Source of the DNA: a virus | Taxonomy: Duplodnaviria; Heunggongvirae; Uroviricota; Caudoviricetes | DNA length: 22,406 nt | Direction: 5' to 3' (one strand) | IMG/VR virus record: IMGVR_UViG_2537562020_000008 | Shown: in pieces, positions 1 to 21,240 of the stretch | Layout: the number at the start of each line of letters is the position of its first letter | Position numbering within the stretch: the stretch's first letter is position 1 | Program-made: the position numbers and the translations under genes | Notes under the pieces: generated by a model | What the model was told of the DNA's origin: nothing | Database searches by the model: none | Seen by the model: the letters and a program-made list of their open reading frames with translations, nothing else

Positions 1-179
1 CCGAACTGCATACGCTGCAGTTTCGCAACCAGCGCCTTCAGCCGGTTGATTTCGGAAGCATAAGCCGCCACCCGCTGTGAGAGCAGGCGGTTGTATTCGG
101 CCATCTGGCGGATGGTGTCCTGTTGCGTCTGCAACAGTGCCCGCAGGCGGGCATTCTCATGAGCAAGTGAGGTGTCCAT
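1..179 (-). CDS. IS66-family transposase (third ORF), N-terminal fragment only; gene runs off the window
   Basis: Reverse-complement translation from ATG at 179 gives MDTSLAHENARLRALLQTQQDTIRQMAEYNRLLSQRVAAYASEINRLKALVAKLQRMQFG, which matches my recollection of IS66 transposase N-termini (leucine-zipper-like). Confidence 0.75.
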   Translation of the reverse strand, partial: MDTSLAHENARLRALLQTQQDTIRQMAEYNRLLSQRVAAYASEINRLKALVAKLQRMQF

Positions 180-198
180 ATCCTCACTTTACAACGGG

Positions 199-546
199 TT
201 ATATGCGGATGCCAGCGCGTTCCGTTCGTTTCGGGTGCTTCCAGTTGATACCTTCAAGAAGCATGGATAACTGAGCCGGAGTAAGGTGAACCTTTCCATC
301 GCGGGTGACCGGCCAGACGAAGCGGCCCCGCTCCAGGCGTTTGGTGAAGAGGCACAGTCCGTCACTGTCAGCCCACAACACTTTTATCTGGTCACCCCGG
401 CGTCCGCGGAAGATGAACAGGTGTCCGGAGAACGGGTCATCCTTCAGGACGTTCTGAACTTTTGATGCCAGGCCGTTAAAGCCATTTCGCATATCGGTGA
501 TACCTGCAACCAGCCAGATACGCGAACCTGCAGGGAGAGATATCAT
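199..546 (-). CDS. IS66-family Orf2 (TnpB-like accessory protein)
   Basis: 115-aa ORF; the segment GITDMRNGFNGLASKVQNVLKDDPFSGHLFIFRGRRGDQIKVLWADSDGLCLFTKRLERGRFVWP is typical of IS66 Orf2; ATGA overlap with upstream orf1. Confidence 0.85.
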   Translation of the reverse strand: MISLPAGSRIWLVAGITDMRNGFNGLASKVQNVLKDDPFSGHLFIFRGRRGDQIKVLWADSDGLCLFTKRLERGRFVWPVTRDGKVHLTPAQLSMLLEGINWKHPKRTERAGIRI

Positions 547-1223
547 CAGTGGCTGCTCCCTTTTATTTCGCGGATAAGTGTCTGTAATAACGCCGGCGTC
601 AGTTTACCTTTAAGCCTGAGAGTTCCGGCCGGCAGAACCAGCTCACAACACAGACTGTCGGACGGTGTATTTATCTGCTCTGGTTCCTGTGCGGGGGCCG
701 GGATTTTATTATCCGGCTCCGGCGTTAACGTCACGGGAAGCAGTGCCGGCATATTTTTTCCGGAAGGCAGCAGGCCACCTTTCCGGTATTGATGGCGCCA
801 GTTGAAGAGCAGGTTATCGTTGATTCCGTTTTCCCGGGCGATCTGCGCCACACAGGCTCCGGGCTGCAGTGACTGCTCCACTAAGGCGATTTTAAACTCA
901 TAAGGGAAGTTGGGCCGCCGGGGACGTTTTTTTACCACGGGGGCTTCGGATATAACGGTGCTTTCAGGACGTACGACTGGTATCGTGGAAAATTGTCCGT
1001 AAAGGCAGGCATCAAGTTCCTGCTCCGACATGCCTGCGGGCAAAGGCCACGAAAGGCCAGCTCTCCGAAAGCGCACGAACATACTACAAACTGTTGATTT
1101 TGGTACACCCAGGCGACGCCCGGCCACAACCCGGGGTAAATGTTCTTCAAAGTGAAGACGTAAAGCTTCAGTGATCCAGGTCCGGTGTTTCATACGATAG
1201 TGTCCATTAAAAATGATGGACAT
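546..1223 (-). CDS. IS66-family Orf1 (TnpA-like accessory protein, HTH-containing)
   Basis: 225-aa ORF directly upstream of, and overlapping, IS66 Orf2; position and order fit IS66 architecture. True start may be the internal Met (MKHRTW...). Confidence 0.7.
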   Translation of the reverse strand: MSIIFNGHYRMKHRTWITEALRLHFEEHLPRVVAGRRLGVPKSTVCSMFVRFRRAGLSWPLPAGMSEQELDACLYGQFSTIPVVRPESTVISEAPVVKKRPRRPNFPYEFKIALVEQSLQPGACVAQIARENGINDNLLFNWRHQYRKGGLLPSGKNMPALLPVTLTPEPDNKIPAPAQEPEQINTPSDSLCCELVLPAGTLRLKGKLTPALLQTLIREIKGSSH

Positions 1224-1272
1224 TATTTTTGTAGAGCCGGAGGAAACAGACCAGACGGTTTAAATGAGCCGG

Positions 1273-4307: not shown

Positions 4308-4855
4308 GCGTTAGTTTCTCCACAGTCACGACACGCCACGGCGCCCGGAGCTGCACACTCGCGGGCGTCATTACTTTCTGAAATGCAAAAGATTTTGTAG
4401 ACCAGTGCTGCATGCTCCTGCAGCTTCGAAATTGAGAGATATAGCTCGTCGTTAATTGCAGTTTTCTCATGCGGTTCCACTACACCGTCTTCGATTGCTG
4501 AACGAATCTGTTTTGAATAACTGCCGATCTGTTCAATGACCTCCAGCAGGCGTTGGTTGATATCGGCGTTGTCCACATCCTCGACATCAGGAAGAGACAC
4601 AAAGACGCCATTTGCAGACTGCGCCACAGCGTCAGCAATGAAGTGAGTTCCACCAGCACGTTGCAAAATCATTGCCCATCCCAGCGGGAAAATCTGATCG
4701 CCATCGGCACGAAGGCGGTTAAATAATGCGTTCTCTGTTACATCCAGCCAGTCAGCAGCTTCAGCGTACCCCCCCGGCAACGCTGCGATAGTTTTTCTGA
4801 CAGCTTTCACGTACCACTCAGGCTGTTTTTCTACTTTCCAGTGATGCTTACCCAC
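4304..4855 (-). CDS. Phage regulatory protein, CII-like (CP76 family) - tentative
   Basis: 183 aa immediately downstream of cro in the rightward operon; overall pattern ([35 protein letters not shown]...) resembles CP76-type CII regulators as I recall them. Confidence 0.5.
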
Positions 4856-5108
4856 GGTTCACCTCCTGTTCCTGTGGTTTAAACCCATTCTGGTTTTGGC
4901 TAGATTGAAAACGTGCCGGATAAAGAATCTGCATTTCGCTGACTTCACCCTTAAAAAAATTGGCTAAACGTTCTGCAAGCTCGATAGATGGAATCTGCTC
5001 CAGCCTCTCAATACGACTCAACGTCGCTGGATTGACTTGAACACCCGCAGCAACATGCTGCAAAGTGAAACCATGCGCCTTACGCACATTTCGTAATGGT
5101 GATTGCAT
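4848..5108 (-). CDS. cro: Cro-like HTH (XRE-family) repressor
   Basis: 86 aa; HTH motif GFTLQHVAAGVQVNPATLSRIERLEQIPSIELAERLANFF; divergent from the cI-like gene across an operator-rich 97-bp spacer. Confidence 0.8.
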   Translation of the reverse strand: MQSPLRNVRKAHGFTLQHVAAGVQVNPATLSRIERLEQIPSIELAERLANFFKGEVSEMQILYPARFQSSQNQNGFKPQEQEVNRG

Positions 5109-5205
5109 ACGCCCTCCAAATATTGCGCGTTATGCATGTTATTTCACGCAATTATTTTGCGCAAGTTGATTTGCTTATCACGCAATAAAGAAATGTAATA
5201 AACGC
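5109..5205. promoter_or_regulatory. Immunity-region operator/promoter region (OR-like) between cro and cI
   Basis: Seen directly: ttgcgcgttatgcat (5123..5137), cacgcaattattttgcg (5144..5160) and ttgcttatcacgcaa (5171..5185), sharing TTGC/GCAA half-sites. Confidence 0.7.
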
Positions 5206-5898
5206 ATGAACATAGGAAACCGAGTCAGACAACTTCGCCAAGCGAAGAACATGAAAATCGCCGATCTCGCTGAAGCGATAGGAGTAGATGCGGCGAACAT
5301 CTCGCGCTTAGAAACGGGTAAGCAAAAACAATTTACCGAACAAACACTGAGTAATATTGCCAAGAGCTTAGGTGTTGATATTGCTGATCTCTTTACCTCT
5401 GCCCACAAAAGTAATACTGTATATAAAAACAGTAATAATGAGGATGTTGCGCAGGTGAAGGATGTGTTCCGTATTGAAATGCTGGATATCAGTGCCAGTG
5501 CGGGAAATGGCCTTATCCAGGGCGGTGATGTCATTGATGTGATTCATGCCATCGAATACAGAACTGATAATGCTGTATCAATGTTCGGCGGACGACCAGC
5601 CAATCACATCAAAGTTATCAACGTTCGTGGGGACAGTATGTGTCCAACCATTGAGCCCGGAGATCTCATCTTCGTTGATGTCAGCATCAATCAGTTTGAT
5701 GGTGATGGTATATATGTCTTTGGTTTTGATGACAAAATATACGTTAAAAGACTTCAAATGATTCCTGACAAACTGCTGGTGATTTCTGATAACCAGATTT
5801 ACCGTGAATGGGGAATTACTAGCGAAAACGAACACCGATTCATGGTCTTTGGAAAGGTCTTAATCAGTCAGTCGCAAACCCTTAAGAGACATAATTAA
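5206..5898 (+). CDS. cI: cI-like prophage repressor (N-terminal XRE HTH + C-terminal LexA-like S24 peptidase domain)
   Basis: 230 aa; HTH (MKIADLAEAIGVDAANISRLETGK) and C-terminal S24-type region (VRGDSMCPTIEPGDLIFVD ... IYVKRL). Confidence 0.9.
   Translation: MNIGNRVRQLRQAKNMKIADLAEAIGVDAANISRLETGKQKQFTEQTLSNIAKSLGVDIADLFTSAHKSNTVYKNSNNEDVAQVKDVFRIEMLDISASAGNGLIQGGDVIDVIHAIEYRTDNAVSMFGGRPANHIKVINVRGDSMCPTIEPGDLIFVDVSINQFDGDGIYVFGFDDKIYVKRLQMIPDKLLVISDNQIYREWGITSENEHRFMVFGKVLISQSQTLKRHN
5415..5434. promoter_or_regulatory. Near-consensus SOS (LexA) box embedded in the cI coding sequence
   Basis: Seen directly: TACTGTATATAAAAACAGTA versus consensus TACTGTATATATATACAGTA; CTGT-N8-ACAG core intact. 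Confidence 0.5.
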
Positions 5899-5917
5899 CC
5901 TCAATATCCCATCCATC

Positions 5918-5942
5918 GGCCACCGAAAGGTGGCTTTTTATT
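5918..5942 (+). terminator. Rho-independent terminator downstream of cI
   Basis: GGCCACC-gaaa-GGTGGC hairpin followed by TTTTTATT, 20 nt after the cI stop. Confidence 0.75.
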
Positions 5943-5952
5943 ACCTATAAAT

Positions 5953-5989
5953 TTGCATATCTCGCAAATATCACTTGCATGTCTCGCAA
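5953..5989. promoter_or_regulatory. OL-like operator pair (two 15-bp TTGC-N7-GCAA sites, 22 bp apart)
   Basis: Seen directly: ttgcatatctcgcaa (5953..5967) and ttgcatgtctcgcaa (5975..5989), same half-sites as the cro/cI intergenic sites. Confidence 0.55.
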
Positions 5990-6175
5990 TTTAATTTTAT
6001 CTTTTGTTCCAGACCAACTACAGGATTACAACAAAATCTGGTTGCAACACGGTGCATGTGTCGTAAGCAGTCAGTAAATGTCAAAAACGAACAGGCAGGA
6101 CGCCCACGAAGTAGCCGCCTGGGGCATATGAAGTCCAGGATGATTCGTTGAGTCATGTTGTGCCACTAGGCACTC

Positions 6176-6472
6176 ATGTTAAAGCAGGTGTATGAAATGA
6201 AAGTCCAGATTTTAAACAATAACTGTGAAGTCGTTTGGTCATACGACATAGCCGCCCCTGTAGATCAGAGCGGCGATAGCTGGACCAATGGGAAACATCA
6301 GATTATGGCTGGAGTTGTGTTCTCTTTACGCCGTGCTTTGGAACAGGCTGAAGTATTTCCATCAGACCCTGAATGGAAATGGCCTTTTTCTATTTGTCCA
6401 AATTCGGAGAGCACATTTCAGAAAATTGGTCAGAAAGTCGCACTCGAAGAGCATCAGCCAACTGTTTCCTGA
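6176..6472 (+). CDS. Hypothetical moron protein (possible start at 6196, MKVQILNN...)
   Basis: ORF downstream of the OL-like sites at the position occupied by rexAB/sieB in lambdoid phages. Its 3' end overlaps the convergent ORF by ~80 bp, so one of the two may be mis-called. Confidence 0.35.
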   Translation: MLKQVYEMKVQILNNNCEVVWSYDIAAPVDQSGDSWTNGKHQIMAGVVFSLRRALEQAEVFPSDPEWKWPFSICPNSESTFQKIGQKVALEEHQPTVS

Positions 6473-6635
6473 TTTTTTCAGGTAACTCGTCGGCATCGCA
6501 GAAACAACAACGCTCGATCATGTTGAAAGCCGATTCGTAGAACTGTTTCTGCTGAGTGTCGCTGAGACAGGAAAAGAGCGACGTTACGATGATTTTATTA
6601 ATTGCATTATCAAGTTCTTTTTCATCAAAAGTCAT
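6390..6635 (-). CDS. Hypothetical small Cys-containing protein (81 aa)
   Basis: Good RBS (aaaaggaaaatcaaATG); contains CCFC; no family recognised. Confidence 0.45.
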   Translation of the reverse strand: MTFDEKELDNAINKIIVTSLFSCLSDTQQKQFYESAFNMIERCCFCDADELPEKIRKQLADALRVRLSDQFSEMCSPNLDK

Positions 6636-7072
6636 TTGATTTTCCTTTTATGTATACGGGCTTAAAAGGATACCACCGAGCCTGAAGTGGTGAAAAGACA
6701 GGCACATAACAGCTAAGTATTTTCAACCAAAGAGAATCCTTAGCGTTGTGGTGAATGCGGCTCAGCGCACGCGGGTTAAGGTTGAGGCTGACAGTCGACC
6801 TTCTGTGGATACCCACCCGTCTGGTGTGCAACCTTCGCCAGGCACCGGGAGGCACCCGGCACCACAACTTTATGCTGTGTGTAGTCCTGGCGGTACCAGT
6901 TTGTACCCTTGCTTCCGGCTGGTACCGTCCTTTTTACAAAACAGAGAAGAGCATCACCGGACGACGGGCTCATAACCCAATCCATCCGGGCGGCTGCCAC
7001 CGCAGGTGTTCTTCTCTGTTTTGTGGAGAAACTAATCGGCCTTGCAGGGTCGATATGATGAGGAGCAGCAAA

Positions 7073-7447
7073 ATGGCTAGCGAACGCAGTACTGATGTAC
7101 AGGCATTTATCGGGGAGCTGGACGGCGGCGTATTTGAAACCAAAATCGGCGCAGTTCTCAGTGAAGTCGCTTCCGGTGTGATGAACAGGAGGGACAGCTG
7201 ATAGAAACAGAAGCCACTGGAGCACCTCAAAAACACCATCATACACTAAATCAGTAAGTTGGCAGCATCACCCAAACTCTCATATGTTCGCCCGACTAAC
7301 CGCGGGAAAATTTCCGAAGAAGACACCACCGAAACGCCGATGTATGTCAATCGCGGTGGTCGCCTGACTATTCTGCAGGAAGACCAGGGACAATTACTGA
7401 CTCTTGCCGGTGAACCTGACGGAAAACTCCGCGCAGCAGGTCATTAA
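7073..7447 (+). pseudogene. Prophage gene split by a ~90-bp IS1-end remnant (5' part 7073..7182, 3' part 7273..7447)
   Basis: RBS gaggagcagcaaaATG at 7073; 5' fragment MASERSTDVQAFIGELDGGVFETKIGAVLSEVASGV stops inside the IS1-derived segment; 3' fragment KLSYVRPTNRGKISEED...GKLRAAGH resumes in the same frame after it. Confidence 0.4.
7183..7272 (-). mobile_element. IS1 left-end remnant (IRL plus ~65 bp; the rest of IS1 absent)
   Basis: Reverse complement reads GGTGATGCTGCCAACTTACTGATTTAGTGTATGATGGTGTTTTTGAGGTGCTCCAGTGGCTTCTGTTTCTATCAGCTGTCCCTCCTGTTCA, matching the IS1 terminus and start of insA as I recall it; similarity ends near 7183. Confidence 0.8.
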
Positions 7448-7512
7448 TATCGTTCTTAATTAACTGATTATTTATCTCATCACTGAATATCTTTATATAG
7501 TGAGGACTTATT

Positions 7513-8337
7513 ATGTCTCAGAACTTAGACGCAACCGCAATTAATCAAATCCATGCCCTTATTTCTGCTCAGGGTGTTAATGAAATTATCAGTAAGATTG
7601 GTGCCGATGCTGTGGCATTGCCTGAGAATTTCCGCATTCATGATCTGGAAAAATTTAATTTAAATCGCTTCCGTTTCCGTGGTGCGCTTTCCACTGCCAG
7701 CATCGATGACTTTACCCGTTATTCTAAAGATCTTGCAGATGAAGGCACCCGCTGCTTTATCGATGCTGATAATATGCGAGCCGTCAGTGTGCTTAACCTG
7801 GGTACTATTGATGAACCAGGTCACGCAGATAACACCGCCACTCTCAAACTGAAAAAGACAGCACCGTTCTCTGCCCTGTTGTCTGTTAACGGCGAGCGTA
7901 ACTCCCAGAAGTCACTGGCAGAATGGATTGAAGACTGGGCCGACTACCTTGTGGGCTTTGATGCTAATGGTGACGCCATTCAGGCAACAAAAGCGGCTGC
8001 GGCGGTCCGTAAAATCACGATTGAAGCAAACCAGACCGCTGATTTTGAAGACAATGACTTCAGCGGCAAACGCTCTCTGATGGAGTCTGTCGAAGCGAAG
8101 ACCAAAGACATTATGCCAGTGGCATTTGAATTTAAATGCATTCCGTTTGAAGGTCTGAAAGAACGTCCGTTTAAATTACGCCTCAGCATTATCACTGGCG
8201 ATCGTCCGGTACTGGTTCTGCGCATTATTCAGCTGGAGGCGGTGCAGGAAGAAATGGCTAACGAATTTCGTGATCTGCTTGTTGAGAAATTCAAGGACAG
8301 CAAAGTAGAAACCTTTATTGGTACTTTCACCGCCTGA
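7513..8337 (+). CDS. yfdQ: YfdQ-like prophage protein (DUF2303 family)
   Basis: 274 aa, the length of the CPS-53 prophage protein YfdQ, and followed by YfdR/S/T-like genes in the same order. Confidence 0.7.
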
Positions 8338-8465
8338 TTTCATTACTGCAAATGCCCCTGCGGGGGCATTTATGGAAACGTAATTAACTCAATAATCGCC
8401 TGATGGCGAGGGTTTTCTTTAACCAAAATTCAGCGCGGTGCAGCGCATATAAAGTGGAGAACAAA

Positions 8466-9002
8466 ATGTCATTTATTAAAACTTTTTCCGGGAAGCATTT
8501 TTATTATGACAAGATAAATAAAGACGACATCGTTATTAACGATATCGCGTTTTCCCTTTCAAATATCTGTCGCTTTGCCGGTCATCTTTCGCACTTCTAC
8601 AGCGTCGCCCAACATGCGGTTCTTTGCAGCCAGCTGGTGCCGCAGGAATTTGCTTTTGAAGCGTTAATGCATGATGCAACAGAAGCGTATTGCCAGGACA
8701 TTCCCGCACCACTGAAACGCCTTCTTCCTGACTATAAACGGATGGAAGAAAAAATAGACGCCGTAATCCGTGAGAAATACGGGTTACCTCCTGTTATGAG
8801 CACGCCAGTGAAATATGCCGATCTCATCATGCTGGCAACCGAACGCCGCGATCTCGGGCTTGATGATGGCTCTTTCTGGCCTGTACTGGAAGGTATCCCG
8901 GCAACAGAGATGTTCAACGTGATTCCACTGGCACCGGGCCATGCCTACGGGATGTTTATGGAACGCTTTAACGAGTTATCGGAGTTACGCAAATGCGCAT
9001 GA
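8466..9002 (+). CDS. yfdR: YfdR-like HD-domain protein (5'-deoxynucleotidase family)
   Basis: 178 aa from the ATG at 8466 (RBS GGAGAA); HD-like motif region (FAGHLSHFYSVAQHA ... ALMHDATEAY). The ORF track extends upstream to 8403. Confidence 0.7.
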   Translation: MSFIKTFSGKHFYYDKINKDDIVINDIAFSLSNICRFAGHLSHFYSVAQHAVLCSQLVPQEFAFEALMHDATEAYCQDIPAPLKRLLPDYKRMEEKIDAVIREKYGLPPVMSTPVKYADLIMLATERRDLGLDDGSFWPVLEGIPATEMFNVIPLAPGHAYGMFMERFNELSELRKCA

Positions 9003-9355
9003 ATGTTTTCGAAATGGAAGGGTTTCTTCGTGGGAGATGTGTACCGCGAGATCTGAAAGTAAATGAAACAGATGCTGAATACCTGGTGCGTAAATTCGAT
9101 GCGCTTGAAGCTAAATGTGCAGCACAGGAAAACAAAGTAATACCAGTGTCAACTGAACTGCCACCAGCAAATGAAAGTGTTTTGTTATTCGATGCTAACG
9201 GAGAAGGCTGGCTAATTGGCTGGCGTTCTCTCTGGTACACCTGGGGACAAAAAGAAACCGGAGAATGGCAGTGGACATTTCAGGTCGGGGACCTTGAAAA
9301 CGTCAATATCACTCACTGGGCAGTAATGCCAAAAGCACCGGAGGCTGGAGCATAA
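8993..9355 (+). CDS. yfdS: YfdS-like prophage protein
   Basis: 120 aa; overlaps the yfdR stop; Trp-rich C-terminus (WLIGWRSLWYTWGQKETGEWQW). Confidence 0.65.
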   Translation: MRMNVFEMEGFLRGRCVPRDLKVNETDAEYLVRKFDALEAKCAAQENKVIPVSTELPPANESVLLFDANGEGWLIGWRSLWYTWGQKETGEWQWTFQVGDLENVNITHWAVMPKAPEAGA

Positions 9356-9660
9356 TGACCACTTTTACCGACAAAGAACTGATTAAAGAAATTAAAGAGC
9401 GTATCAGCAGCCTTGACGTGCGAGACGATATTGAGCGCCGTGCTTATGAAATCGCACTCCTATCTCTGGAAGTAGAACCAGATGAACGCGAAGCTTATGA
9501 ATTATTCATGGAAAAGCGTTTCGGTGACTTAGTAGATCGTCGGAGAGCAAAAAACGGCGATAACGAATACATGGAATGGGATATGACTCTCGGTTGGATC
9601 GTCTGGCAGCAACGAGCTGGTATCCATTTTTCAACAATGTCACAGCAAGAGGTGAAATAA
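9355..9660 (+). CDS. yfdT: YfdT-like prophage protein
   Basis: 101 aa; start coupled to the yfdS stop. Confidence 0.65.
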   Translation: MTTFTDKELIKEIKERISSLDVRDDIERRAYEIALLSLEVEPDEREAYELFMEKRFGDLVDRRRAKNGDNEYMEWDMTLGWIVWQQRAGIHFSTMSQQEVK

Positions 9661-10010
9661 TGGAGCCATACAGCCTCACACTCGATGAGGCCTGTCATTT
9701 TCTCAAGATATCCAGACCGACTGCCATTAACTGGATACGCACAGGGCGTCTTCAGGCAACACGCAAAGATCCCACTAAGAATAAATCTCCTTACCTCACA
9801 ACACGACAAGCCTGCATTGCGGCTCTTCAGTCTCCGCTGCATACTGTCCAGGTGAGCGCGGGTGATGGCATAACAGAGGAAAGAAAATGTCACTCTTCCG
9901 CAGAGGTGAAATATGGTACGCCAGTTTCACATTGCCGAACGGTAAAAGATTTAAACAGTCTCTTGGAACAAAGGACAAAAGGCAGGCGACAGAACTCCAT
10001 GACAAGCTAA
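9660..10010 (+). CDS. xis: Excisionase (P22 Xis-like HTH)
   Basis: [40 protein letters not shown]... matches the P22-type Xis pattern; start shares a nucleotide with the yfdT stop (TAATG); 3' end overlaps the int start. Confidence 0.75.
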
Positions 10011-11050
10011 AGGCTGAAGCATGGCGGGTCAGCAAACTTGGTGAAATACCTGATATAACGTTCGAGGAAGCGTGTGTCAGGTGGCTTGAAGAGAAAGCAC
10101 ATAAAAAATCACTGGACGATGACAAAAGCCGGATCGGATTCTGGCTTCAACATTTCGCAGGAATGCAACTAAGAGACATTACTGAATCAAAAATTTATTC
10201 AGCAATGCAGAAAATGACGAACCGGCGTCATGAGGAAAACTGGAAACTCAGGGCAGAAGCATGCAGAAAAAAAGGGAAACCTGTTCCAGAATACACGCCA
10301 AAACCAGCGTCCGTTGCAACGAAGGCTACGCATCTTTCATTTATAAAGGCCCTACTAAGAGCCGCAGAGCGTGAATGGAAAATGCTGGATAAGGCACCAA
10401 TTATTAAAGTGCCTCAACCAAAGAATAAACGGATCCGCTGGCTGGAGCCCCATGAAGCACAAAGGCTGATTGATGAATGTCCGGAGCCATTAAAGTCTGT
10501 TGTTGAATTTGCACTGGCAACAGGCTTAAGACGCTCGAACATCATCAACCTTGAATGGCAACAAATAGATATGCAGCGCCGGGTGGCATGGATAAACCCG
10601 GAAGAGAGTAAATCAAACCGCGCAATCGGCGTTGCGCTGAATGATACTGCATGTCGCGTTTTGAAAAAACAAATCGGGAATCATCACCGTTGGGTATTTG
10701 TGTACAAGGAAAGCTGTACCAAACCAGACGGAACGAAAGCGCCAACAGTAAGGAAGATGCGGTATGACGCAAACACAGCCTGGAAAGCAGCGCTGAGACG
10801 GGCTGGTATTGATGATTTCAGATTTCACGACTTGAGACACACCTGGGCAAGTTGGCTGGTTCAAGCCGGAGTCCCGTTGTCAGTGTTACAGGAAATGGGA
10901 GGCTGGGAGTCTATCGAAATGGTTCGTCGATATGCTCACCTTGCACCTAATCACCTTACCGAACACGCACGGCAAATAGACTCGATCCTGAACCCATCGG
11001 TCCCAAATTCGTCCCAGTCAAAAAATAAGGAAGGTACTAATGATGTGTAA
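9887..11050 (+). CDS. int: Tyrosine integrase, P22-type
   Basis: 387 aa; [47 protein letters not shown]... and C-terminal [41 protein letters not shown] (catalytic R..HxxR..Y); abuts a tRNA-Thr 3' fragment. Confidence 0.9.
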
Positions 11051-11064
11051 CTTATTGATTTAAA

Positions 11065-11113
11065 TGGTGCCGATAATAGGAGTCGAACCTACGACCTTCG
11101 CATTACGAATGCG
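11065..11113 (-). other. att core: 3' 49 nt of a tRNA-Thr (thrW-type, anticodon CGT) gene; the 5' half of the tRNA is not present here
   Basis: Reverse complement CGCATTCGTAATGCGAAGGTCGTAGGTTCGACTCCTATTATCGGCACCA equals the anticodon-loop-to-CCA segment of tRNA-Thr(CGT) as recalled; the sequence 5' of it is not tRNA-like. Confidence 0.8.
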
Positions 11114-11201
11114 TAAATTGATCTTGTAAAATCAATACCTATCGAATTTAAATGGATTTTTTGCCACAATATTGCCACAGTTCGTTAGGAATCAGACAGA
11201 A

Positions 11202-12275
11202 ATGGCGACTATACGCAAACGTGGTAACTACCAATGGGAAGCTCAAATCCGTAAACGTGGTTTTCCCTCTCAAACCAAAACCTTTAACACCAAAGTAGAA
11301 GCAGAAGCTTGGGCCAAAATGATCGAGTCAGAAATGGCGAGAGGAGTTTGGCTTAGCCGCAGCGAAGCGGAATCTACGACATTGTATGAAGCCCTAACGC
11401 GATATGAAAAAGAGATTGTTCCCGACAAAAAAGGGGCAGTGCAAGACCGATCATTGGTGCGGATACTAAAAGGCACTCAGCTGGCGAAAAACTATATGGC
11501 CAGCATCAGGAGTGCCGATGTCGCCAAGCTGAGAGATGAATGGTTGAAAATCTATGCTCCTGCAACCGTTTTAAGGCGTTTGGCCTTACTTTCTCATGTA
11601 TTCAATGTTTCGCGGAAAGAATGGGGCATGGAGAGCCTGCTGAACCCCGTAGAGGCCATTCGTAAACCCCAACCCAAGAACTCCAGGACCAGACGCCTAG
11701 AAGCGCTGCCTGTAGTTTCTGAGAAAACCGGTGTTACGTCAGGAAAGCAAATAGCCAACGAGATCGAACATATCATCGCCGCAACACATTCATTAGTATT
11801 GCCAGCAATCATTCTTCTGGCGTTAGAGACAGCCATGCGCCGTAGCGAAATCGCAGAGCTTCGATGGCGCTTTATCGATCTTGATCGGCGAGTTGCACAT
11901 CTGCCGGATACTAAGAATGGTAATGCCCGCGATGTCCCTTTATCAACGAAAGCCATTACGATACTGTCCAGTCTCAAGGAACATTCTAAGCCAGCTGCTG
12001 ATAAGGTTTTTGATATGCGTGCAGACGCGATTACCCGAGCTTTTGACCGAGCTGTAAAACGAGCCAGAGAACGATACGAGAAAACAAACTCATTATGTGA
12101 TGAATCTTTCCTTAAAGATTTAAGATTTCATGACCTTCGACATGAAGCAACTTCTCGACTTGCTGAAATTTTCCCTATGCATGAACTAACCAAAATTACA
12201 GGACATAAAGATCCAAGAATGCTAATGCGGTATTATCATCCAAAAGCTGAAGATTTGGCGTTAAAGTTGAAATAA
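11202..12275 (+). CDS. Second tyrosine recombinase/integrase (island integrase; a longer ORF begins at 11172)
   Basis: RBS AGGAA before the ATG at 11202; C-terminal LRFHDLRHEATSRL ... LMRYYH catalytic signature. Confidence 0.8.
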   Translation: MATIRKRGNYQWEAQIRKRGFPSQTKTFNTKVEAEAWAKMIESEMARGVWLSRSEAESTTLYEALTRYEKEIVPDKKGAVQDRSLVRILKGTQLAKNYMASIRSADVAKLRDEWLKIYAPATVLRRLALLSHVFNVSRKEWGMESLLNPVEAIRKPQPKNSRTRRLEALPVVSEKTGVTSGKQIANEIEHIIAATHSLVLPAIILLALETAMRRSEIAELRWRFIDLDRRVAHLPDTKNGNARDVPLSTKAITILSSLKEHSKPAADKVFDMRADAITRAFDRAVKRARERYEKTNSLCDESFLKDLRFHDLRHEATSRLAEIFPMHELTKITGHKDPRMLMRYYHPKAEDLALKLK

Positions 12276-12284
12276 GGACGTTGT

Positions 12285-13061
12285 ATGGATTATAAAAATA
12301 AGTTAGTTGATGCATCACCAAAATTAAACAACCCTCAACTATTGGCTATAATATACTTAATACCTTTTGGATACTTGATTGTAGAAAACCCATTATGGCT
12401 AGAAAATATATACATTGCCGCTCCAATTTTCCTATCATCTATAGCTTTATTAACCAGTGTATACATAGGATATCGTGATTTATTAAATAAAGTATTTAAT
12501 AATGCAGTAGTTAAATGGGGCGTAACTGGCTTTACATATTCCGTATGCTTATGGATCGCAAAGTTTAAGCTTGACATAGCTTATGGTATAGTCCCAGAAA
12601 ACCTTAATTACTCGACATTAGCTTATGCTTTCATGCTCTCATTTCCAATAGGGGCAATGATTTGTGCAATTACAGTCTATATATACATATTTTTGCGAGA
12701 TGTATCCCCAGCAAAAATAGTAATATCCTCTATGATTTCAGTATATATTGGAAGCTTGGCTCAACATCATATACAGATGAACAATCTTCCTGAAAAAATA
12801 ATATTAATAGGACTTATAATTATGGTCCCCTATAACATGGTCAATTTAGCTAGTTCATTAGTTATTAAAAGGAAATTTAATTTTAATCGTTTAGTATCAG
12901 GCTTATCCCTTTTTGCTGTGTCAGTTGCTCTTTTTATTATTAGCATGACAGCAATGAAATACATTGAAAGATTTCAAGAAAAGTTTATTTTTCTCGATGC
13001 AAGAACATCTACGACATGTGGTAGCTCAGAAAGCAAATCTCTTTATATTGAAAAAAAATGA
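12285..13061 (+). CDS. Polytopic inner-membrane protein, unknown function
   Basis: 258 aa with several long hydrophobic segments; starts 10 nt after the integrase stop with an AAGGA RBS; AT-rich codon usage. Confidence 0.6.
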   Translation: MDYKNKLVDASPKLNNPQLLAIIYLIPFGYLIVENPLWLENIYIAAPIFLSSIALLTSVYIGYRDLLNKVFNNAVVKWGVTGFTYSVCLWIAKFKLDIAYGIVPENLNYSTLAYAFMLSFPIGAMICAITVYIYIFLRDVSPAKIVISSMISVYIGSLAQHHIQMNNLPEKIILIGLIIMVPYNMVNLASSLVIKRKFNFNRLVSGLSLFAVSVALFIISMTAMKYIERFQEKFIFLDARTSTTCGSSESKSLYIEKK

Positions 13062-13162
13062 AAATCAGTGTTATAAAATATCAGGAAATAAATTCTCGGA
13101 GTTAAGACTAACTCTTGTAGATAAAAACATCTTGAATATAAATAATAAAGGCACTTCAACTT

Positions 13163-13390
13163 ATGAACAAAAATAACCCTGCTAATTCATTTTCTATAGA
13201 AGCAAGGAAAGAAGCTTTTCGGAGAGCTGAAGCCAGTCTTTTTTTATCAAGTAAAGATCCCAAAGGCTCCTCATTTTTTAATGAAATAAAAACTAAGGTA
13301 ATCAATGGAGAGCTAACCTATGAAGAGGCAAAGAGAGAAGTATTAAATTATCACATTGAACAATCTAAAAATCAAAATAAAAGAGGCTAA
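13163..13390 (+). CDS. Small VbhA-like (Fic-antitoxin fold) protein - tentative; canonical inhibitory Glu motif not evident
   Basis: 75 aa; RRAEASLFLSS ... VINGELTYEEAKREVLNYH parallels VbhA (ARNALASQRLEG ... VVVGELETSDVIKDLMERI) by eye. Confidence 0.4.
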   Translation: MNKNNPANSFSIEARKEAFRRAEASLFLSSKDPKGSSFFNEIKTKVINGELTYEEAKREVLNYHIEQSKNQNKRG

Positions 13391-13406
13391 CATTTAGTTA
13401 GCCTCT
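13382..13406 (-). terminator. Hairpin terminator for the minus-strand 70-aa gene, overlapping the 3' end of the plus-strand small gene
   Basis: AGAGGCTAAC-attta-GTTAGCCTCT perfect 10-bp stem; a U-rich tract follows on the minus-strand transcript. Confidence 0.5.
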
Positions 13407-13411
13407 TCTCA

Positions 13412-13624
13412 CTAGTGAGCTATTTTATAGTCCCTTAATGCATTTTTAAGTAACTCCGTTTGCTCATCAGCATCATCATAATTATAAATTCCCGTAGCAG
13501 AATAATACTCTTCGATGCATAGAATATTTATCAATGGTTCACAAATCTCTTTAATAAAATCCTTGTTGTTATCGGCAAAAATAATTTTTATTCCTTCCAA
13601 AACAAAGCTATTATAATCAGCCAT
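13412..13624 (-). CDS. Hypothetical small acidic protein (70 aa)
   Basis: Strong RBS (AGGAGGTGGATAATG); acidic composition; no family recognised. Confidence 0.55.
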   Translation of the reverse strand: MADYNSFVLEGIKIIFADNNKDFIKEICEPLINILCIEEYYSATGIYNYDDADEQTELLKNALRDYKIAH

Positions 13625-13693
13625 TATCCACCTCCTTACAGGTGTTTAGTGGAAGCGTCAGTTAACGTTACCGCGCTAACTGACGCGCCTAAA

Positions 13694-15097
13694 TCAAGAT
13701 TTTTTACTGCCAGTTAAACTATCACCCTCAAACTCATCCTGTTCGTGGTTAGTCTGACGATCGGCTGTGTGTTTACGTATTTGATTCGCTATTTCCCCAC
13801 CAACGGTCTGTTGTCTTCGGATAGTATTAGTACTTCCCTTCATCATCTGATACTCCGAAGCTCCGTTAGACAGCCCGCTCGCCATGTGAGAAGCCATGCG
13901 GCCAGCTCGTGAGAATGATGAAGCAAACCCCTGGCTTCCTCCGCTGACGCTACCTGTATTACTCCCTGCAGAAGAACCACCGGAACCGCCTGATGGTTGT
14001 CCTCCAGAAGTATCTACGGAACCGGTATCTTCCCCTCCGCCAAATCCTCCACCTGAACCACCTTTATCACCAGAACCAGATTCTTCGGCCATCGCCGCTT
14101 GTGCAGATTCAAATGCTGCTTTTAGAGCGGAAGCACCACCACTGACTTGAGCTGTAGCACTTATTGCCATTGCCCCAGCGCCACTGATTGCAGTAGTAGC
14201 AGCGCCAGTAATCATACCTGCTCCAAAACCACCGATCCCTTGTAAGGACGCTCCTCCAACAACGCCTGATAACAACAACGGTAATTTATTCGTCAATACT
14301 AAAAGAATAATTGACGCCAGAAGTAAAACAATAAGACTATTAAGATCAGGAATATCATTTTTAATAATAGAAAAATACTGATCTATAAATGATTGCCCAA
14401 TCCCAATGATTAATGTCATCGTAAATAACTGAATACCAATCGATAATACTGTGCGTAAGTAATTTATTGCTATATCAGAAGTCCATTTCGAGCCACCAAA
14501 CCCAAGCAAAATAACTCCTGCATAACACAACACCCATGCAGAAACTAACATTATTAGCATATTTATCGCGATAAGCGCCATTACTACTAATACTATTATC
14601 GCGACGGTTATCATAATGGTCGAAATCATTGGAGACCAAATTGATGCTGCTGAACTGACCTTTGTTAATATCACAAATGCCATATCCACTATGCTGGAGG
14701 GTGAAATACCAGTACTTGTTCCTAAAGCATTTGCTGCAAGTTGTCTCATTGAGTTAATTATAGATTGTGATATGGCTGGGCCGTTGATTAAAAGATAATA
14801 AAAAAAACCAATCACGGCAAAAAAACGAACTATTTCTGCAAGTGCACTGATTAAACCTTCCCCTTGCATCGCCAACATACCAAATGTCCAAACCATACTT
14901 ATTAATACCAACCCCCAGAAGAGCCAATTTGCATAATCACCAATTACTAATGACCATGTGCTGGCTACTTGCTGAAACTTATCTAATAACGTATCAAGTA
15001 ATCCGCTACTATCTAATTGACCAGCATAAGCATTTACAGAAAACAAAAAAAACATTCCTAAAAAAGTGAGCTTGCTTACTATTCTCATAATTACCAT
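13694..15097 (-). CDS. trbL: TrbL/VirB6-like type IV secretion protein (polytopic, Gly/Ser-rich C-terminal tail)
   Basis: 467 aa; multiple TM segments then a low-complexity tail (GSGGGFGGGEDTGSVDTSGGQPSGGSGGSS); directly follows trbJ and a trbK-like ORF, as in P-type Tra2 clusters. Alternative start at 15088. Confidence 0.75.
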   Translation of the reverse strand: MVIMRIVSKLTFLGMFFLFSVNAYAGQLDSSGLLDTLLDKFQQVASTWSLVIGDYANWLFWGLVLISMVWTFGMLAMQGEGLISALAEIVRFFAVIGFFYYLLINGPAISQSIINSMRQLAANALGTSTGISPSSIVDMAFVILTKVSSAASIWSPMISTIMITVAIIVLVVMALIAINMLIMLVSAWVLCYAGVILLGFGGSKWTSDIAINYLRTVLSIGIQLFTMTLIIGIGQSFIDQYFSIIKNDIPDLNSLIVLLLASIILLVLTNKLPLLLSGVVGGASLQGIGGFGAGMITGAATTAISGAGAMAISATAQVSGGASALKAAFESAQAAMAEESGSGDKGGSGGGFGGGEDTGSVDTSGGQPSGGSGGSSAGSNTGSVSGGSQGFASSFSRAGRMASHMASGLSNGASEYQMMKGSTNTIRRQQTVGGEIANQIRKHTADRQTNHEQDEFEGDSLTGSKKS

Positions 15098-15264
15098 TCT
15101 CGCTTAGGGCTAGGATTGTTATTGCCACGCAGGGCACATTTATCGTAGTTATGTTCGTTCAATTTATTCTCTGGCGTCGATAAACAATCTTCATCTTTTT
15201 TATCGCAAGAGCATAGAATTAATGAAATTATTAGAATAAAAATGACCAAAAGTTTATCTTTCAT
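15091..15264 (-). CDS. trbK: TrbK-like small lipoprotein (entry exclusion), 57 aa; below the ORF-track size cutoff
   Basis: Own translation: MKDKLLVIFILIISLILCSCDKKDEDCLSTPENKLNEHNYDKCALRGNNNPSPKREW; signal peptide with lipobox-like LCSC; lies between trbJ and trbL. Confidence 0.5.
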   Translation of the reverse strand: MKDKLLVIFILIISLILCSCDKKDEDCLSTPENKLNEHNYDKCALRGNNNPSPKREW

Positions 15265-15275
15265 TCAGCTCTCCC

Positions 15276-16070
15276 TCACCAAATTCGCTTCGGGCTTGGT
15301 GTGTTCTCGCCAGCTAACGCTTTTTCATCAGCGACTATTTGTTGGGCTTCTTTATCAGCCTCAGCCTGTGCCAGTGTTGCTGCAGCGTTTTGCTGAGCTA
15401 CCAGAAGCGAGCGGATTTGCAGCAACTGGTTCGTTTGAGCACTGGCAAGCTGGTTAGCGGCCTGAATAGCTTCCATTTGCCCTTGTGCGCCGGTTGCCTG
15501 CGTTTGCAAATCTGCAAGGTTGTCAGCATCGCTTTGCAGTGTTTCCTGCTGTTCGTCAAGAGCCTTAAATACAGCGTCATTGGCCTTTTTACGTGCCTCA
15601 GAGCTGTTCTGTTCAGCTTTGCGCAGTGCGCTAATTTCATCCGCAGTACATTCAACATTACTGTTAAAGCACGGTGATGAGCGGTAGTAATTCACGTCCT
15701 GATAACGTTTCAGATATGAATCAAGACTCCCGGCCTGGTTTTTGTAGTAATTTAGGGTGTCCTGCGCCTGCAACAATTTGTTGATGGTCGAATTGGCCTG
15801 ATCCCAGATATAGGCTGCAGGTGCGACTGTATTTTTGAGCATGTTTTCATACTGCTGCAGCTGCGTCTGGTACTGCTGGATCTGTTTTGCCACAGCCTGA
15901 ACGTTGTTGACTGCGCTGATTGTGGTCTGCACCACATTAGTACCATCGATTACAGGGATACCGGCTGTCGCCGGTAATGCCATGATGGACGCCAGGAAGG
16001 AAGCAGCTAATGATTTTTTAGCTGCTAAAATCCCTCTCAGTGATGAAAATACTCGGAGCATTAACTTCAT
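15276..16070 (-). CDS. trbJ: TrbJ/VirB5-like type IV secretion protein
   Basis: Signal peptide then GIPVIDGTNVVQTTISAVNNVQAVAKQIQQYQTQLQQYENMLKNT, matching the TrbJ signature as recalled; Gln-rich coiled-coil C-terminus. Confidence 0.8.
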   Translation of the reverse strand: MKLMLRVFSSLRGILAAKKSLAASFLASIMALPATAGIPVIDGTNVVQTTISAVNNVQAVAKQIQQYQTQLQQYENMLKNTVAPAAYIWDQANSTINKLLQAQDTLNYYKNQAGSLDSYLKRYQDVNYYRSSPCFNSNVECTADEISALRKAEQNSSEARKKANDAVFKALDEQQETLQSDADNLADLQTQATGAQGQMEAIQAANQLASAQTNQLLQIRSLLVAQQNAAATLAQAEADKEAQQIVADEKALAGENTPSPKRIW

Positions 16071-16151
16071 TTGCCCACCTCAAATTTAACTGATTATTAA
16101 TATTGAAAACTCGTACTTTTAACAAATACAGATATTTAGGGAACCATAAAT

Positions 16152-16517
16152 TTATTTATTCAAGATTCTATCCATAATATTTCTTAGTTCTTGTCTGGTT
16201 GATTCTATTTTAGCAAGCAACGTTTTTATCAATGAGGGTGAAAAATCAACTGTGCGTGGATCGTTAGCTAACCACAGTTTAAGTAACCCACCAAGTCGAC
16301 CAAGATCAGCATTTACTCGGCTAAGCTCTACAACCTGTTCAATATCTACCATAGACTCAACCTGATAACCCATTGCTACTTTACGAATGAAACTCGCTAC
16401 ACTTAAGCCGGATGCTTCTGCATTATCCTGGATTTGCGCTTTTTCATCTGGCAAACAATAAACTTTAATTGGTGTACTATTTTTTCTAGTCTGAGAAACG
16501 GTCATATCATTCTCCAT
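16152..16517 (-). CDS. mobC: MobC-like relaxosome accessory protein (ribbon-helix-helix)
   Basis: 121 aa; RHH-like N-terminus (KVYCLPDEKAQIQDNAEASGLSVASFIRKVAMG) and DLGRLGGLLKLWL resembling the MobC-family conserved segment. Confidence 0.55.
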   Translation of the reverse strand: MENDMTVSQTRKNSTPIKVYCLPDEKAQIQDNAEASGLSVASFIRKVAMGYQVESMVDIEQVVELSRVNADLGRLGGLLKLWLANDPRTVDFSPSLIKTLLAKIESTRQELRNIMDRILNK

Positions 16518-16584
16518 ACAGGCGGTAGCCGATCAGCCTCGCAGAGCAGGACTCCGTTGAGCAGCTCAGCTGCGAATAAGGGAA

Positions 16585-16635
16585 GGTAAAGTAGAAGCAC
16601 CGTTTACGGTGGGCCTACTTTACATATCCTGCCCT
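16585..16635. other. oriT-like site: 9-bp inverted repeat around an inner palindrome, followed by a MOBP-type nick motif ATCCTGC
   Basis: Seen directly: GTAAAGTAG-aagcaccgtttacggtgggc-CTACTTTAC then acatATCCTGCcc at 16626..16632; lies ~70 bp upstream of mobC. Confidence 0.4.
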
Positions 16636-16787
16636 ACATTTGCCGTTGTGAATCTGTGTACGTATTGTGTATTTCTGTGTACTCAGTGTGTTTTCCTAAA
16701 GCATTTGTGCAGGATTAGTAGTGTAAAAATGTGCAGCATATGTGTTTATTGGAATGGAAATTATTTGAATGCCCCTAAGAGATATTT

Positions 16788-17081
16788 TTATTCTCGCGGC
16801 TTGGGTTTTGGCGGCCTGCCACGTTTCCTTTGACATCTATTTATCTCTTTCGCTATATCGTCATTTTCTGTCTTTGACTCAACAGATTTATCTATCCAGT
16901 CCTTAACATCTTCTCTACGCCAGAGAAGACGTTTATTACCGGGAAGACGGCATCTTGGTGGAAGACATTTTGGATTTCGCGTTGCATCACTGCGGATACT
17001 TTTTACAGTTTTCTTTAATGCAAAAGCCAACTCTTCAACGGTTATAAGTTCTGGCATAACTGATTTCATCGAAGAACCCAT
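16788..17081 (-). CDS. Excisionase/AlpA-like HTH DNA-binding protein with basic AT-hook-like tail
   Basis: 97 aa; LITVEELAFALKKTVKSIRSDATRNPKCLPPRCRLPGNKRLLWRREDVKDWI is an AlpA/Xis-type HTH pattern; C-terminal RKRGRPPKPKPRE. Confidence 0.55.
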   Translation of the reverse strand: MGSSMKSVMPELITVEELAFALKKTVKSIRSDATRNPKCLPPRCRLPGNKRLLWRREDVKDWIDKSVESKTENDDIAKEINRCQRKRGRPPKPKPRE

Positions 17082-17103
17082 CTCTCAGTAGAAATTTGAG
17101 GAT

Positions 17104-17131
17104 TTTAGCGGCTAAAATTTTAGCCGCTAAA
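17104..17131. promoter_or_regulatory. Perfect 28-bp palindrome just upstream of the excisionase-like gene (operator or bidirectional hairpin)
   Basis: Seen directly: TTTAGCGGCTAAAA|TTTTAGCCGCTAAA. Confidence 0.45.
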
Positions 17132-17382
17132 GTTTGCTAACCAACGTTATGAATTGAGAATAATTAAAACTTACTGGCAAAAAGAATAATGTCAACAGGG
17201 TTTTTATTCATCGGATTCTTACTCCATATGAAATTGGTTTTATTGACCGATTTCTGAATGACACTAAGGTTTTAATAATTCCTTTAATCTTTTTGGTTAT
17301 ATAAAAGGTTAAAGATCAGGTTAGAGAGGTGTGGAAAAGCGATATATTCACTTGTTTACTATGACAATTTTAAATTATATCC

Positions 17383-17448
17383 GTACCTCAAATGTCATGA
17401 AAGCGTACCTCATATGTCATAAAGGCGTACCTCATATGTCATATAATA
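17383..17448. repeat. Three tandem copies of a 22-bp unit (GTACCTCATATGTCAT core)
   Basis: Seen directly: gtacctcaaatgtcatgaaagc / gtacctcatatgtcataaaggc / gtacctcatatgtcatataata. Confidence 0.85.
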
Positions 17449-17528
17449 AAAAATAAGCAAACAAGTTATACACAATATTATTAACAGAATCTGTGGATAA
17501 ATACACAGATTATACATGATAAAATAGA

Positions 17529-17734
17529 TTGTTTAGCTAAACTAAATAACAATAAATAAAATGAAACAAAATGTAAATAACAGGGGGGGTGTAGGTGACT
17601 TATAAATTTGGTTAGCTAACCTTTATAAGAAACACTGTTTGTAAATGATTCATTTCTGACAACGGATATATCGAATTTGAGTAAGAAAAACACTTCAACT
17701 AACCTTACTCTCTGATTTGTTTAGCTAAACAAAT
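17529..17734. promoter_or_regulatory. Three palindromes with a shared TTAGCTAA core upstream of the HigA-like gene (putative operators)
   Basis: Seen directly: ttgtttagctaaac (17529..17542), ggttagctaacc (17610..17621), atttgtttagctaaacaaat (17715..17734, perfect 20 bp). Confidence 0.5.
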
Positions 17735-17775
17735 TACTGTAAGGAATCCGATGACGTTAAAAAAAAGGGGGGGAT

Positions 17776-18033
17776 ATGAGGACAATAAATGCTGCACCTT
17801 CAACTGTCGGAGAGATTTTATACGAAGAATTCTTGAAACCATTGGATATGCCTCCCGCAAGACTTGCTGAACTGATGGATACATCATATGAAAAAATTTG
17901 GGAAATAATTAAAAATGAGCGAAATATAACTCTTGAAGAAGCTATTCAACTCTCGATAATTTTCAATACAGATGCATCTTTTTGGGTGAAACTGCAAGAG
18001 CTACATGAGGCATGGTTTAATAAACAAAAGTAA
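17776..18033 (+). CDS. HigA-like HTH (XRE-family antitoxin-type) regulator, no cognate toxin ORF detected
   Basis: 85 aa; VGEILYEEFLKPLDMPPARLAELMDTSYEKIWEIIKNERNITLEEAIQLSIIFNTDASFWVKLQ matches the HigA/VapI pattern; preceded by an A8G7 homopolymer pair. Confidence 0.65.
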   Translation: MRTINAAPSTVGEILYEEFLKPLDMPPARLAELMDTSYEKIWEIIKNERNITLEEAIQLSIIFNTDASFWVKLQELHEAWFNKQK

Positions 18034-18233
18034 GGTTATTCAATTAGATTACTTAGTACTAATACATAATTTGCTTTGAATAATACTCATACATTTCTAA
18101 CGACTTATTAAAGCGATAATATACTCGGACGACTGAGGATTAAAAAATCCGATCCTTGATGATGGGAACCTGCCATGACTAGGTAAGTCATTTTAGCAGT
18201 GGTACAGGCGACATTAAAAGCCGATATAAAGAA

Positions 18234-21234: not shown

Positions 21235-21240
21235 CTTATT

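Follow-up and report, generated by a model that had tools for sequence, protein, structure and literature searches.

The yfdQRST block of a defective SfV-like prophage at thrW and the structured RNA between yfdQ and yfdR

The stretch of DNA considered here (the window) is a virus record of 22,406 nucleotides assigned to the Caudoviricetes (IMG/VR IMGVR_UViG_2537562020_000008). Judged by sequence, its positions 7513–9660 are the early-left accessory block of a defective SfV-like prophage at thrW, orthologous to the yfdQRST genes of the Escherichia coli K-12 prophage CPS-53 (KplE1). The best-supported mechanism for this block is that YfdR binds DnaA and, with YfdQ plus YfdS or YfdT as partners, keeps host replication from starting, and we consider this, with modest confidence, to be its probable natural function. 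The cassette consists of catalogued, named and partly characterized genes, whose identification is correct and not new. The only element that may be new is a structured RNA in the spacer between yfdQ and yfdR.

Identity and Layout of the Block

The four proteins are almost the same as those of CPS-53, with 271 of 274 residues identical for YfdQ, 176 of 178 for YfdR, 115 of 120 for YfdS and 96 of 101 for YfdT, and the genes have the same order and orientation. For the counterparts in phage SfV, the figures are 273/274 (orf31), 173/178 (orf30), 120/120 (orf29) and 100/101 (orf28); SfV Xis (114/116) and SfV Int (382/387) complete the series, and the window is 99% identical to SfV and SfIV at the nucleotide level over positions 7273–11100. 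Such identity is far beyond chance, and by this measure the block is yfdQRST itself, not merely a yfdQRST-like one. A direct protein comparison of the window Xis and Int with TorI and IntS of K-12 revealed no relationship. Among 5,426 complete E. coli genomes, 556 (about 10%) carry a match over at least 80% of positions 7200–11100, and RefSeq names the genes there yfdQ, yfdR (5'-deoxynucleotidase), yfdS and yfdT.

A preliminary description of the window, made from the letters alone, had recognized four open reading frames (ORFs) of 274, 178, 120 and 101 amino acids, in this order and just upstream of xis-int, and had compared them with yfdQRST of CPS-53. The ORF list confirms the sizes and the order, xis and int lie where they were placed, and the protein comparison, of the kind that had been named as a check, relates all four proteins to YfdQ–T at 95–99% amino acid identity to CPS-53. 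The same description spoke of four translationally coupled genes, which is true of part of the block. The coding regions of yfdR and yfdS overlap by 10 nt, and those of yfdS and yfdT by 1 nt (TAATG), as do those of yfdT and xis (TAATG). At the yfdQ/yfdR junction there is neither overlap nor abutment, and the two genes are set apart by a structured spacer of 128 nt (8338–8465), so coupling across the whole operon does not hold. An alternative start of yfdR at the ATG at 8403, corresponding to the mechanical ORF 8403–9002 of 199 amino acids, was rejected because this ATG is not conserved in other species.

The K-12 locus yfdP-yfdQ-yfdR-yfdS-yfdT (b2359–b2363) thus resembles the window in gene order, in protein identity, in its Q–R spacer (127–128 nt) and in the overlapping R/S/T junctions. 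It differs in what surrounds the genes: in K-12, ypdJ and torI come after yfdT and intS is found at the opposite end, next to argW, whereas in the window SfV-type xis-int follow directly, together with a thrW att copy. Moreover, yfdP is intact in K-12 and broken in the window, and the region upstream of yfdP is not the same. The segment orf32-orf28-xis-int of SfV, and also that of SfIV, is the other close relative, with protein identities of 97–100%. SfV, however, is a complete phage; it carries gtrA/B/V on the downstream side of int and differs in its cI region. In the window the immunity region is of another kind, gtr and late genes are missing, and yfdP bears an insertion sequence (IS) scar of IS1.

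Published Function and Proposed Mechanism

In 2016, Noguchi and Katayama isolated yfdQRST as a multicopy suppressor of the over-initiation caused by hda-185 (PMC4776307). The minimal set for the phenotype was yfdQ and yfdR with either yfdS or yfdT; yfdP was dispensable and yfdQ was required. Extra copies of yfdQRST inhibited initiation in dnaAcos, seqA, DARS and diaA backgrounds as well as in the wild type, and raised hydroxyurea resistance (PMC4776307). At the biochemical level, DnaA pulled YfdR from extracts, the binding of purified YfdR to DnaA depended on Phe46, and YfdR was found to bind domain I of DnaA in moderate competition with DiaA and DnaB. In vitro, an excess of YfdQRST in extracts inhibited replication from oriC (PMC4776307). 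The same authors named SfV orf29–31 as homologues and suggested a lambda-P-like role for the ancestral phage. YfdR has since been cited as a prophage-encoded inhibitor of initiation (PMC12122000; bioRxiv 2026.05.06.723188), and a 2025 survey described the yfdP/yfdQ/HD-phosphatase cluster as common in lambdoid early-left operons, with P and Q having no known function (PMC12315714). PMC4776307 has thus overtaken the statement in the preliminary description that no function is established for the four genes together; the suggestion there of an anti-host role for early-left genes fits this literature.

Because the window proteins are 95–99% identical to those of K-12, we infer that the K-12 results (multicopy phenotype, minimal set, DnaA binding and competition) would also apply to the window copy; a role in the phage life cycle is likewise inferred. 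According to the proposed mechanism, the block would be expressed after derepression and would serve an anti-host function. YfdR would bind domain I of DnaA at the Phe46 surface, which is also used by DiaA and DnaB, and with YfdQ and either YfdS or YfdT would stop new rounds of initiation at oriC. The outcome may be that host replication capacity is freed for the phage, or that host cycling is halted, in the way that lambda P acts on DnaA. Lambda P, which binds domain III of DnaA, and SirA of Bacillus subtilis, which binds domain I, are both examples of a small DnaA-bound protein that blocks initiation, as proposed for YfdR. With SirA the likeness extends to the same DnaA surface, Phe49 there corresponding to Phe46 of E. 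coli (PMC4776307). There is no sequence relationship to either protein, however, and YfdR differs from both in being an HD protein that needs partner genes in vivo. The natural role of a phage-borne inhibitor aimed at DnaA is a question worth pursuing.

Conservation of Gene Neighborhoods

The cohesion of the block was studied in 80 loci from a collection with one genome per species and in 80 near-identical viral contigs, in which the five proteins (YfdP to YfdT) were placed by tblastn. In 79 of the 80 genome loci the gene immediately before yfdQ encodes a YfdP homologue, and the lone exception is a locus ended by a contig edge, so that the pair is adjacent in all 79 informative loci; the two genes overlap by up to 24 nt or lie up to 65 nt apart. 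The gene yfdR follows yfdQ after 51–143 nt in 54 of the 80 genome loci, and in five more it is found 0.6–1.2 kb away, beyond another gene. P and Q are also adjacent in ST64B, in an Stx2 phage and in one phage each of Pseudomonas, Vibrio and Xanthomonas, all with other genes following the pair. The YfdP homologues themselves, of 115–124 amino acids and matching no Pfam family, were seen upstream of yfdQ from Enterobacterales to Vibrio, Pseudomonas, Marinobacter and Xanthomonas phages.

Several points weigh against DnaA-directed inhibition as the natural function of the block. Deletion of yfdQRST from K-12 alters neither initiation nor hydroxyurea resistance; the authors concede that an overexpression artefact is possible, as the functional data all come from multicopy or overexpression experiments, and the competition of YfdR with DiaA and DnaB is only moderate (PMC4776307). 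YfdQ, YfdS and YfdT have no known roles, and a pure DnaA-binding role leaves the conserved catalytic residues of YfdR unexplained. In the window, expression of the block is uncertain, because the prophage is decayed, lacking late genes, and yfdP is broken upstream, where a terminator-like hairpin also lies. In addition, yfdQ, yfdR, yfdS and yfdT do not travel together across loci. By tblastn, yfdR was not found within 6 kb of yfdQ in 21 of the 80 genome loci, yfdS is present in six and yfdT in four, and SfII-type phages carry R-S-T-xis-int without P-Q.

The block is composite, since P and Q are paired in every informative locus, R is often present and S and T seldom are. One conserved module is made up of yfdP, yfdQ and the structured RNA; within Enterobacterales yfdR is commonly found next to it but can be separated from it, and yfdS and yfdT are lineage-specific add-ons; contrary to the view of the four genes as a unit in the preliminary description, they are not one conserved evolutionary unit. 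This make-up sits uneasily with a strict four-protein machine, but it does not contradict the genetic result that YfdQ and YfdR cooperate.

The Four Proteins

YfdQ matches Pfam PF10065 with 307.9 bits (cut-off 26.6) over profile positions 2–269 of 269, and belongs to phrog_210. Its family comprises 1,834 clusters at 50% identity, nearly all of them single-domain proteins of about 270 amino acids. The sole sequence homologue in the PDB is 9O7M, a "YfdQ Protein" of 274 amino acids with 36 chains (E 1.6e-44), which comes from a 43-kb Xanthomonas/Xylella phage group; a literature search for a paper on this entry found none. In fold libraries compared without 9O7M, no fold relative of known function was detected.

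YfdR differs from the K-12 protein only at F29/V29 and E170/D170. It contains the H...HD...D motif of metal-dependent phosphohydrolases of the HD domain type, and its nearest solved relative is the HD protein Atu1052 (PDB 2GZ4, E 4.5e-14), with which, as with YfbR, it shares the HD fold and the metal/catalytic motif. The constellation H50, H69-D70, E73, D78 and D119 is kept in 45–46 of 46 distinct YfdR homologues, the most distant at 52% identity. Purifying selection acts on these HD catalytic residues, and for this reason an enzymatic activity of YfdR probably also matters. The PHROG match is phrog_318, named deoxyribonucleoside 5' monophosphate phosphatase. YfdR nevertheless scores below both curated cut-offs for YfbR (Pfam PF12917, 23.9 vs 25.9; NCBIfam equivalog NF003009, 19.8 vs 122). 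The K-12 protein reportedly has nucleotide affinities and an activity much weaker than those of YfbR, as far as the passage in PMC4776307 that cites Zimmerman 2008 goes. The preliminary description had called the protein an HD-domain protein of the 5'-deoxynucleotidase type; the HD part stands on the conserved residues, and the type agrees with the RefSeq name, whereas membership in the YfbR models does not hold.

YfdS gives a marginal match to DUF551 (Pfam PF04448, 22.2 bits against a cut-off of 22.0, residues 50–117) and belongs to phrog_583; YfdT belongs to phrog_660 and matched no Pfam family. A possible basis for the redundancy of the two proteins was sought, and neither BLASTP similarity nor a common PHROG family was found. 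NCBIfam gave no match for YfdQ, YfdS or YfdT, a PDB sequence search with YfdS, YfdT and YfdP gave none either, and a PADLOC scan of all four block proteins returned no defence system at E ≤ 0.1.

Alternative Readings

With its HD active site conserved, YfdR could act on nucleotides. The protein might mainly be a phosphohydrolase acting on deoxyribonucleoside monophosphates (dNMPs) or on a signalling nucleotide, so as to alter pools or disarm a nucleotide-based defence, with DnaA binding being secondary or an artefact. Besides the nearly invariant HD constellation, the names given to YfdR by PHROG and RefSeq point in this direction. Phage T5 employs a 5'-deoxyribonucleotidase early in infection. 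The failure of YfdR to reach the YfbR cut-offs speaks against such an activity, as do its nucleotide affinities, which lie far under those of YfbR in the part of PMC4776307 that cites Zimmerman 2008. Nor is there any PADLOC match, known substrate or defence target, and the need for YfdQ and for YfdS or YfdT would be left unexplained. We regard this reading as unlikely, and the idea of altered dNMP pools or anti-defence in the preliminary description finds no support in the PADLOC scan or in the YfbR scores.

A different view takes the pair yfdP-yfdQ as the core, with a DNA-associated function (protection, repair, or an accessory role in replication or recombination) exerted by YfdQ as a large oligomer, and yfdR, yfdS and yfdT as unrelated neighbors. 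The strict adjacency of P and Q, which extends to Salmonella, Stx, Pseudomonas, Vibrio and Xanthomonas phages, the RecT, exonuclease and SSB genes that often adjoin the pair, the 36 chains of the YfdQ homologue in 9O7M and the yfdPQ operon listed in K-12 databases all favor it. That yfdP is dispensable and yfdQ required for the replication phenotype (PMC4776307) ties yfdQ functionally to yfdR instead, and Casjens and co-workers judge a recombination role unlikely in view of co-occurrence with complete Rec modules (PMC12315714). As an account of the whole block this view is distinctly unlikely, yet the tight pair and the large solved assembly suggest a separate, not yet recognized function, and the function of so widespread a pair deserves study. 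Finally, the block could have been domesticated and kept in cryptic prophages for tolerance of oxidative, acid or replication stress through slower initiation. Deletions of CPS-53, yfdQ and yfdS were reported to be sensitive to hydrogen peroxide, multicopy yfdQRST raises hydroxyurea resistance (PMC4776307), and the block is intact in remnants such as CPS-53 and the prophage in the window. The reported phenotypes are weak, however, and hydroxyurea resistance is unaffected by deletion of yfdQRST (PMC4776307). Conservation needs no host benefit, because functional phages (SfV, SfIV, mEp460 and Stx2c phages) carry the same genes at 99% identity, and such a host benefit is very improbable.

A Structured RNA between yfdQ and yfdR

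The spacer between yfdQ and yfdR folds into three short hairpins (HP1–HP3; Table 1) with a z-score of −3.2, and is 126–143 nt long across Enterobacteriaceae. The linkers between the hairpins, GAAGCGTAAT and GGGATTCGTGCAACCAAAA, are conserved and single-stranded, and so is the GGAG ahead of the next start codon conserved. In an alignment of 29 sequences from different species, built with MAFFT without structure bias, 94.9% of cells are paired, compared with 41–55% when the partners are slid by 1–3 columns. Changes on both sides occur in 10 of 19 pairs, and none of 500 shuffles matched the observed values. U-G pairs are frequent (12 of the 29 sequences at one HP1 pair, for example), which fits an RNA on the mRNA strand and not on its complement. 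With 82 distinct sequences, 97.3% of cells are paired and 146 show double changes, a figure for pairing that leans towards structure because this alignment was fitted to the model.

A covariance model of the element finds exactly one copy per locus in the 89 + 100 loci searched, and beside yfdQ this copy always starts from the yfdQ stop codon, even where the next gene is not yfdR; in two of the loci, L001 and L005, it occupies positions 7063–7196 and 4826–4966. The model also matches K-12 (NC_000913.3, 2,474,857–2,474,983), SfV and ST64B, and gave nothing significant in HK022 and distant DUF2303 phages. A second copy, as expected of a nutR- or putR-like partner, was sought in the window and in 188 loci; none was found, and the minus-strand matches are to the palindromic HP1 only. 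Among 4,227 Rfam models, none reached its gathering score in the spacer region, and the matches there were at chance level (E > 1).

The element is not confined to loci with yfdQ. An exact 24-nt motif of it occurs in at least 120 viral contigs, 69 of which are without YfdQ, and in 37 of these 69 the motif is flanked on each side by 2.5 kb or more. In the YfdQ-less contigs, the complete element stands at the end of a long untranslated leader. One of them, L170, has the order cI, terminator, strong promoter (TTGACC-17-GATACT), about 600 nt free of ORFs, terminator-like hairpin, a further hairpin (HP0), HP1–3 and first gene. Among the matches listed, the first gene after the element is YfdR-like in 57 loci, encodes a 130-amino-acid protein in 52 and an 84-amino-acid protein in seven. 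A stretch homologous to this leader, with the terminator-like hairpin and HP0, lies upstream of yfdP in the window, where RefSeq annotates a frameshifted hypothetical protein (6889–7054). The simplest reading of these arrangements is that yfdP-yfdQ is an insertion in a conserved leader, placed between its HP0 and its HP1, and the covariation-supported RNA would mark a junction at which modules are exchanged.

We tentatively propose, as a possibility short of a probable one, that the spacer RNA represents a class of structured RNA not described before, which occurs in early-left transcripts of lambdoid phages and prophages of enterobacteria, reaches to the Shine-Dalgarno sequence of the next gene, whichever that is, and is kept independently of yfdPQ and yfdR. 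The closest parallel is put of HK022, an RNA of about 70 nt described as forming two long stems and as occurring twice, close behind PL and again after PR (PMC9378689). Like put, the spacer RNA is structured, encoded in cis and part of the early-left transcript in lambdoid phages without N, and put-like antitermination has been suggested for N-less phages of the ST64B/LLS type. The spacer RNA is set apart from the put description by its three short hairpins, conserved linkers and single copy and by its place after the terminator-like hairpin; it does not show the put pattern of two long stem-loops within about 70 nt and copies after both PL and PR. It could act in cis, on read-through of the upstream terminator, on RNA processing or on control of the downstream gene, or, like DicF, it could be processed into a small RNA. 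Should read-through or translation in lambdoid phages without N be under its control, it would bear on the regulation of their early-left operons.

The Prophage and Its Surroundings

A group of E. coli isolates obtained from human diarrhoeal stool have chromosomes that match the whole window at 99.6% identity. Since late genes, including Q and those for lysis and morphogenesis, are absent from the window, the prophage is a remnant, as is CPS-53. After the IS66 genes at its start, the minus strand carries a LexA-like gene, dam, yfdN (PerC), an O-like replication gene, a CII-like gene (ymfL) and cro. The coordinates of the main features are collected in Table 1.

Table 1. Features of the block, the structured RNA and the surrounding prophage (aa, amino acids).
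Feature	Positions	Strand	Remarks
yfdQ	7513–8337	+	274 aa, DUF2303/YfdQ family; from the ORF list
yfdR	8466–9002	+	178 aa, HD-domain phosphohydrolase; K-12 orthologue is a DnaA-binding protein
yfdS	8993–9355	+	120 aa, C-terminal DUF551; 10-nt overlap with yfdR
yfdT	9355–9660	+	101 aa, no Pfam family; 1-nt overlap with yfdS (TAATG)
Intercistronic structured RNA	8338–8465	+	HP1–HP3, then Shine-Dalgarno GGAG at 8456
HP1	8350–8371	+	AAATGCCCC-TGCG-GGGGCATTT
HP2	8396–8409	+	
HP3	8433–8446	+	GCGC-GGTGCA-GCGC
Leader-like non-coding stretch	6889–7054	+	Upstream of yfdP; homologous to the leader in yfdPQ-less phages
Terminator-like hairpin	6889–6935	+	GGCGGTACCAG...CTGGTACCGTC + CTTTTT; conserved
Hairpin HP0	7035–7054	+	Loop TTGCAG
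xis	9660–10010	+	116 aa, HTH_17 excisionase, SfV type
int	9887–11050	+	387 aa, tyrosine integrase, SfV type, thrW-specific
IS66 genes	1–1250		Truncate rusA; IS66-family tnpA/tnpB at 199–1223, −
cI-type repressor	5206–5898	+	
Intrinsic terminator of cI	5918–5942	+	
Operator-like repeats TTGCATRTCTCGCAA	5953–5967, 5975–5989		Presumed OL/PL region
yfdP pseudogene	7073–7447	+	About 75 nt of the middle replaced by an IS1 left-end fragment
IS1 left-end fragment	7182–7272		91 nt, 100% identical to the IS1 end
Partial thrW tRNA-Thr, 3' half	11065–11113	−	49 nt; prophage att junction

Related repeats of 15 nt (TTGCNTATCNCGCAA-like) occur in the cI-cro spacer (5109–5205), and two more follow closely on the cI terminator. 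These repeats are candidates for the OR and OL operators of the immunity type in the window, which is not that of SfV. Because the repeats after the terminator resemble those in the cI-cro spacer, an OL/PL region after cI is a reasonable inference. The placement of the block in a PL operon by the preliminary description is plausible, given that it lies on the same strand downstream of cI and of the operators, but the conserved hairpin at 6889–6935 and the broken yfdP intervene. Between the repeats and the hairpin, two convergent frames with an 83-nt overlap at their 3' ends were noted, orf33 (6176–6472, +, phrog_3195) and an 81-amino-acid ORF (6390–6635, −, phrog_3311, "ECs1072 family"); both are conserved in SfV.

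The break in yfdP was defined by alignment with E1648, K-12 and SfV, and the junction of IS1 and yfdP is not present in any complete E. coli genome of the collection. Multi-copy BLAST matches in the region were traced to the 91-nt IS1 end only, not to a full IS1. One of four sigma-70-like matches in 5000–11300, TTGGCA-18-TATGTT (7259–7288), is made up of the IS1 end and yfdP and points to yfdQ.

At the other end of the prophage, the thrW fragment is identical to the 3' half of thrW beside int in strain S1-INA-02-B, and in other E. coli genomes int directly abuts tRNA-Thr. The fragment scores 22.3 bits against the Rfam tRNA model (gathering score 29), and ARAGORN reports no tRNA. In 11065–11175 the thrW half gives way to foreign sequence, and RefSeq places a "tRNA-Ser" of 112 nt here in strain E1648; this segment is probably an att scar between two tandemly integrated islands. 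A second integrase (11172–12275) opens an island of low guanine-plus-cytosine content (32–40%) that extends over 11172–22406 and contains trbL, trbJ, traJ and genes for VbhA-like and HigA-like antitoxins. Rfam matches in this island are a traJ-II RNA (16535–16634, −) and PtaRNA1 (13618–13690, +).

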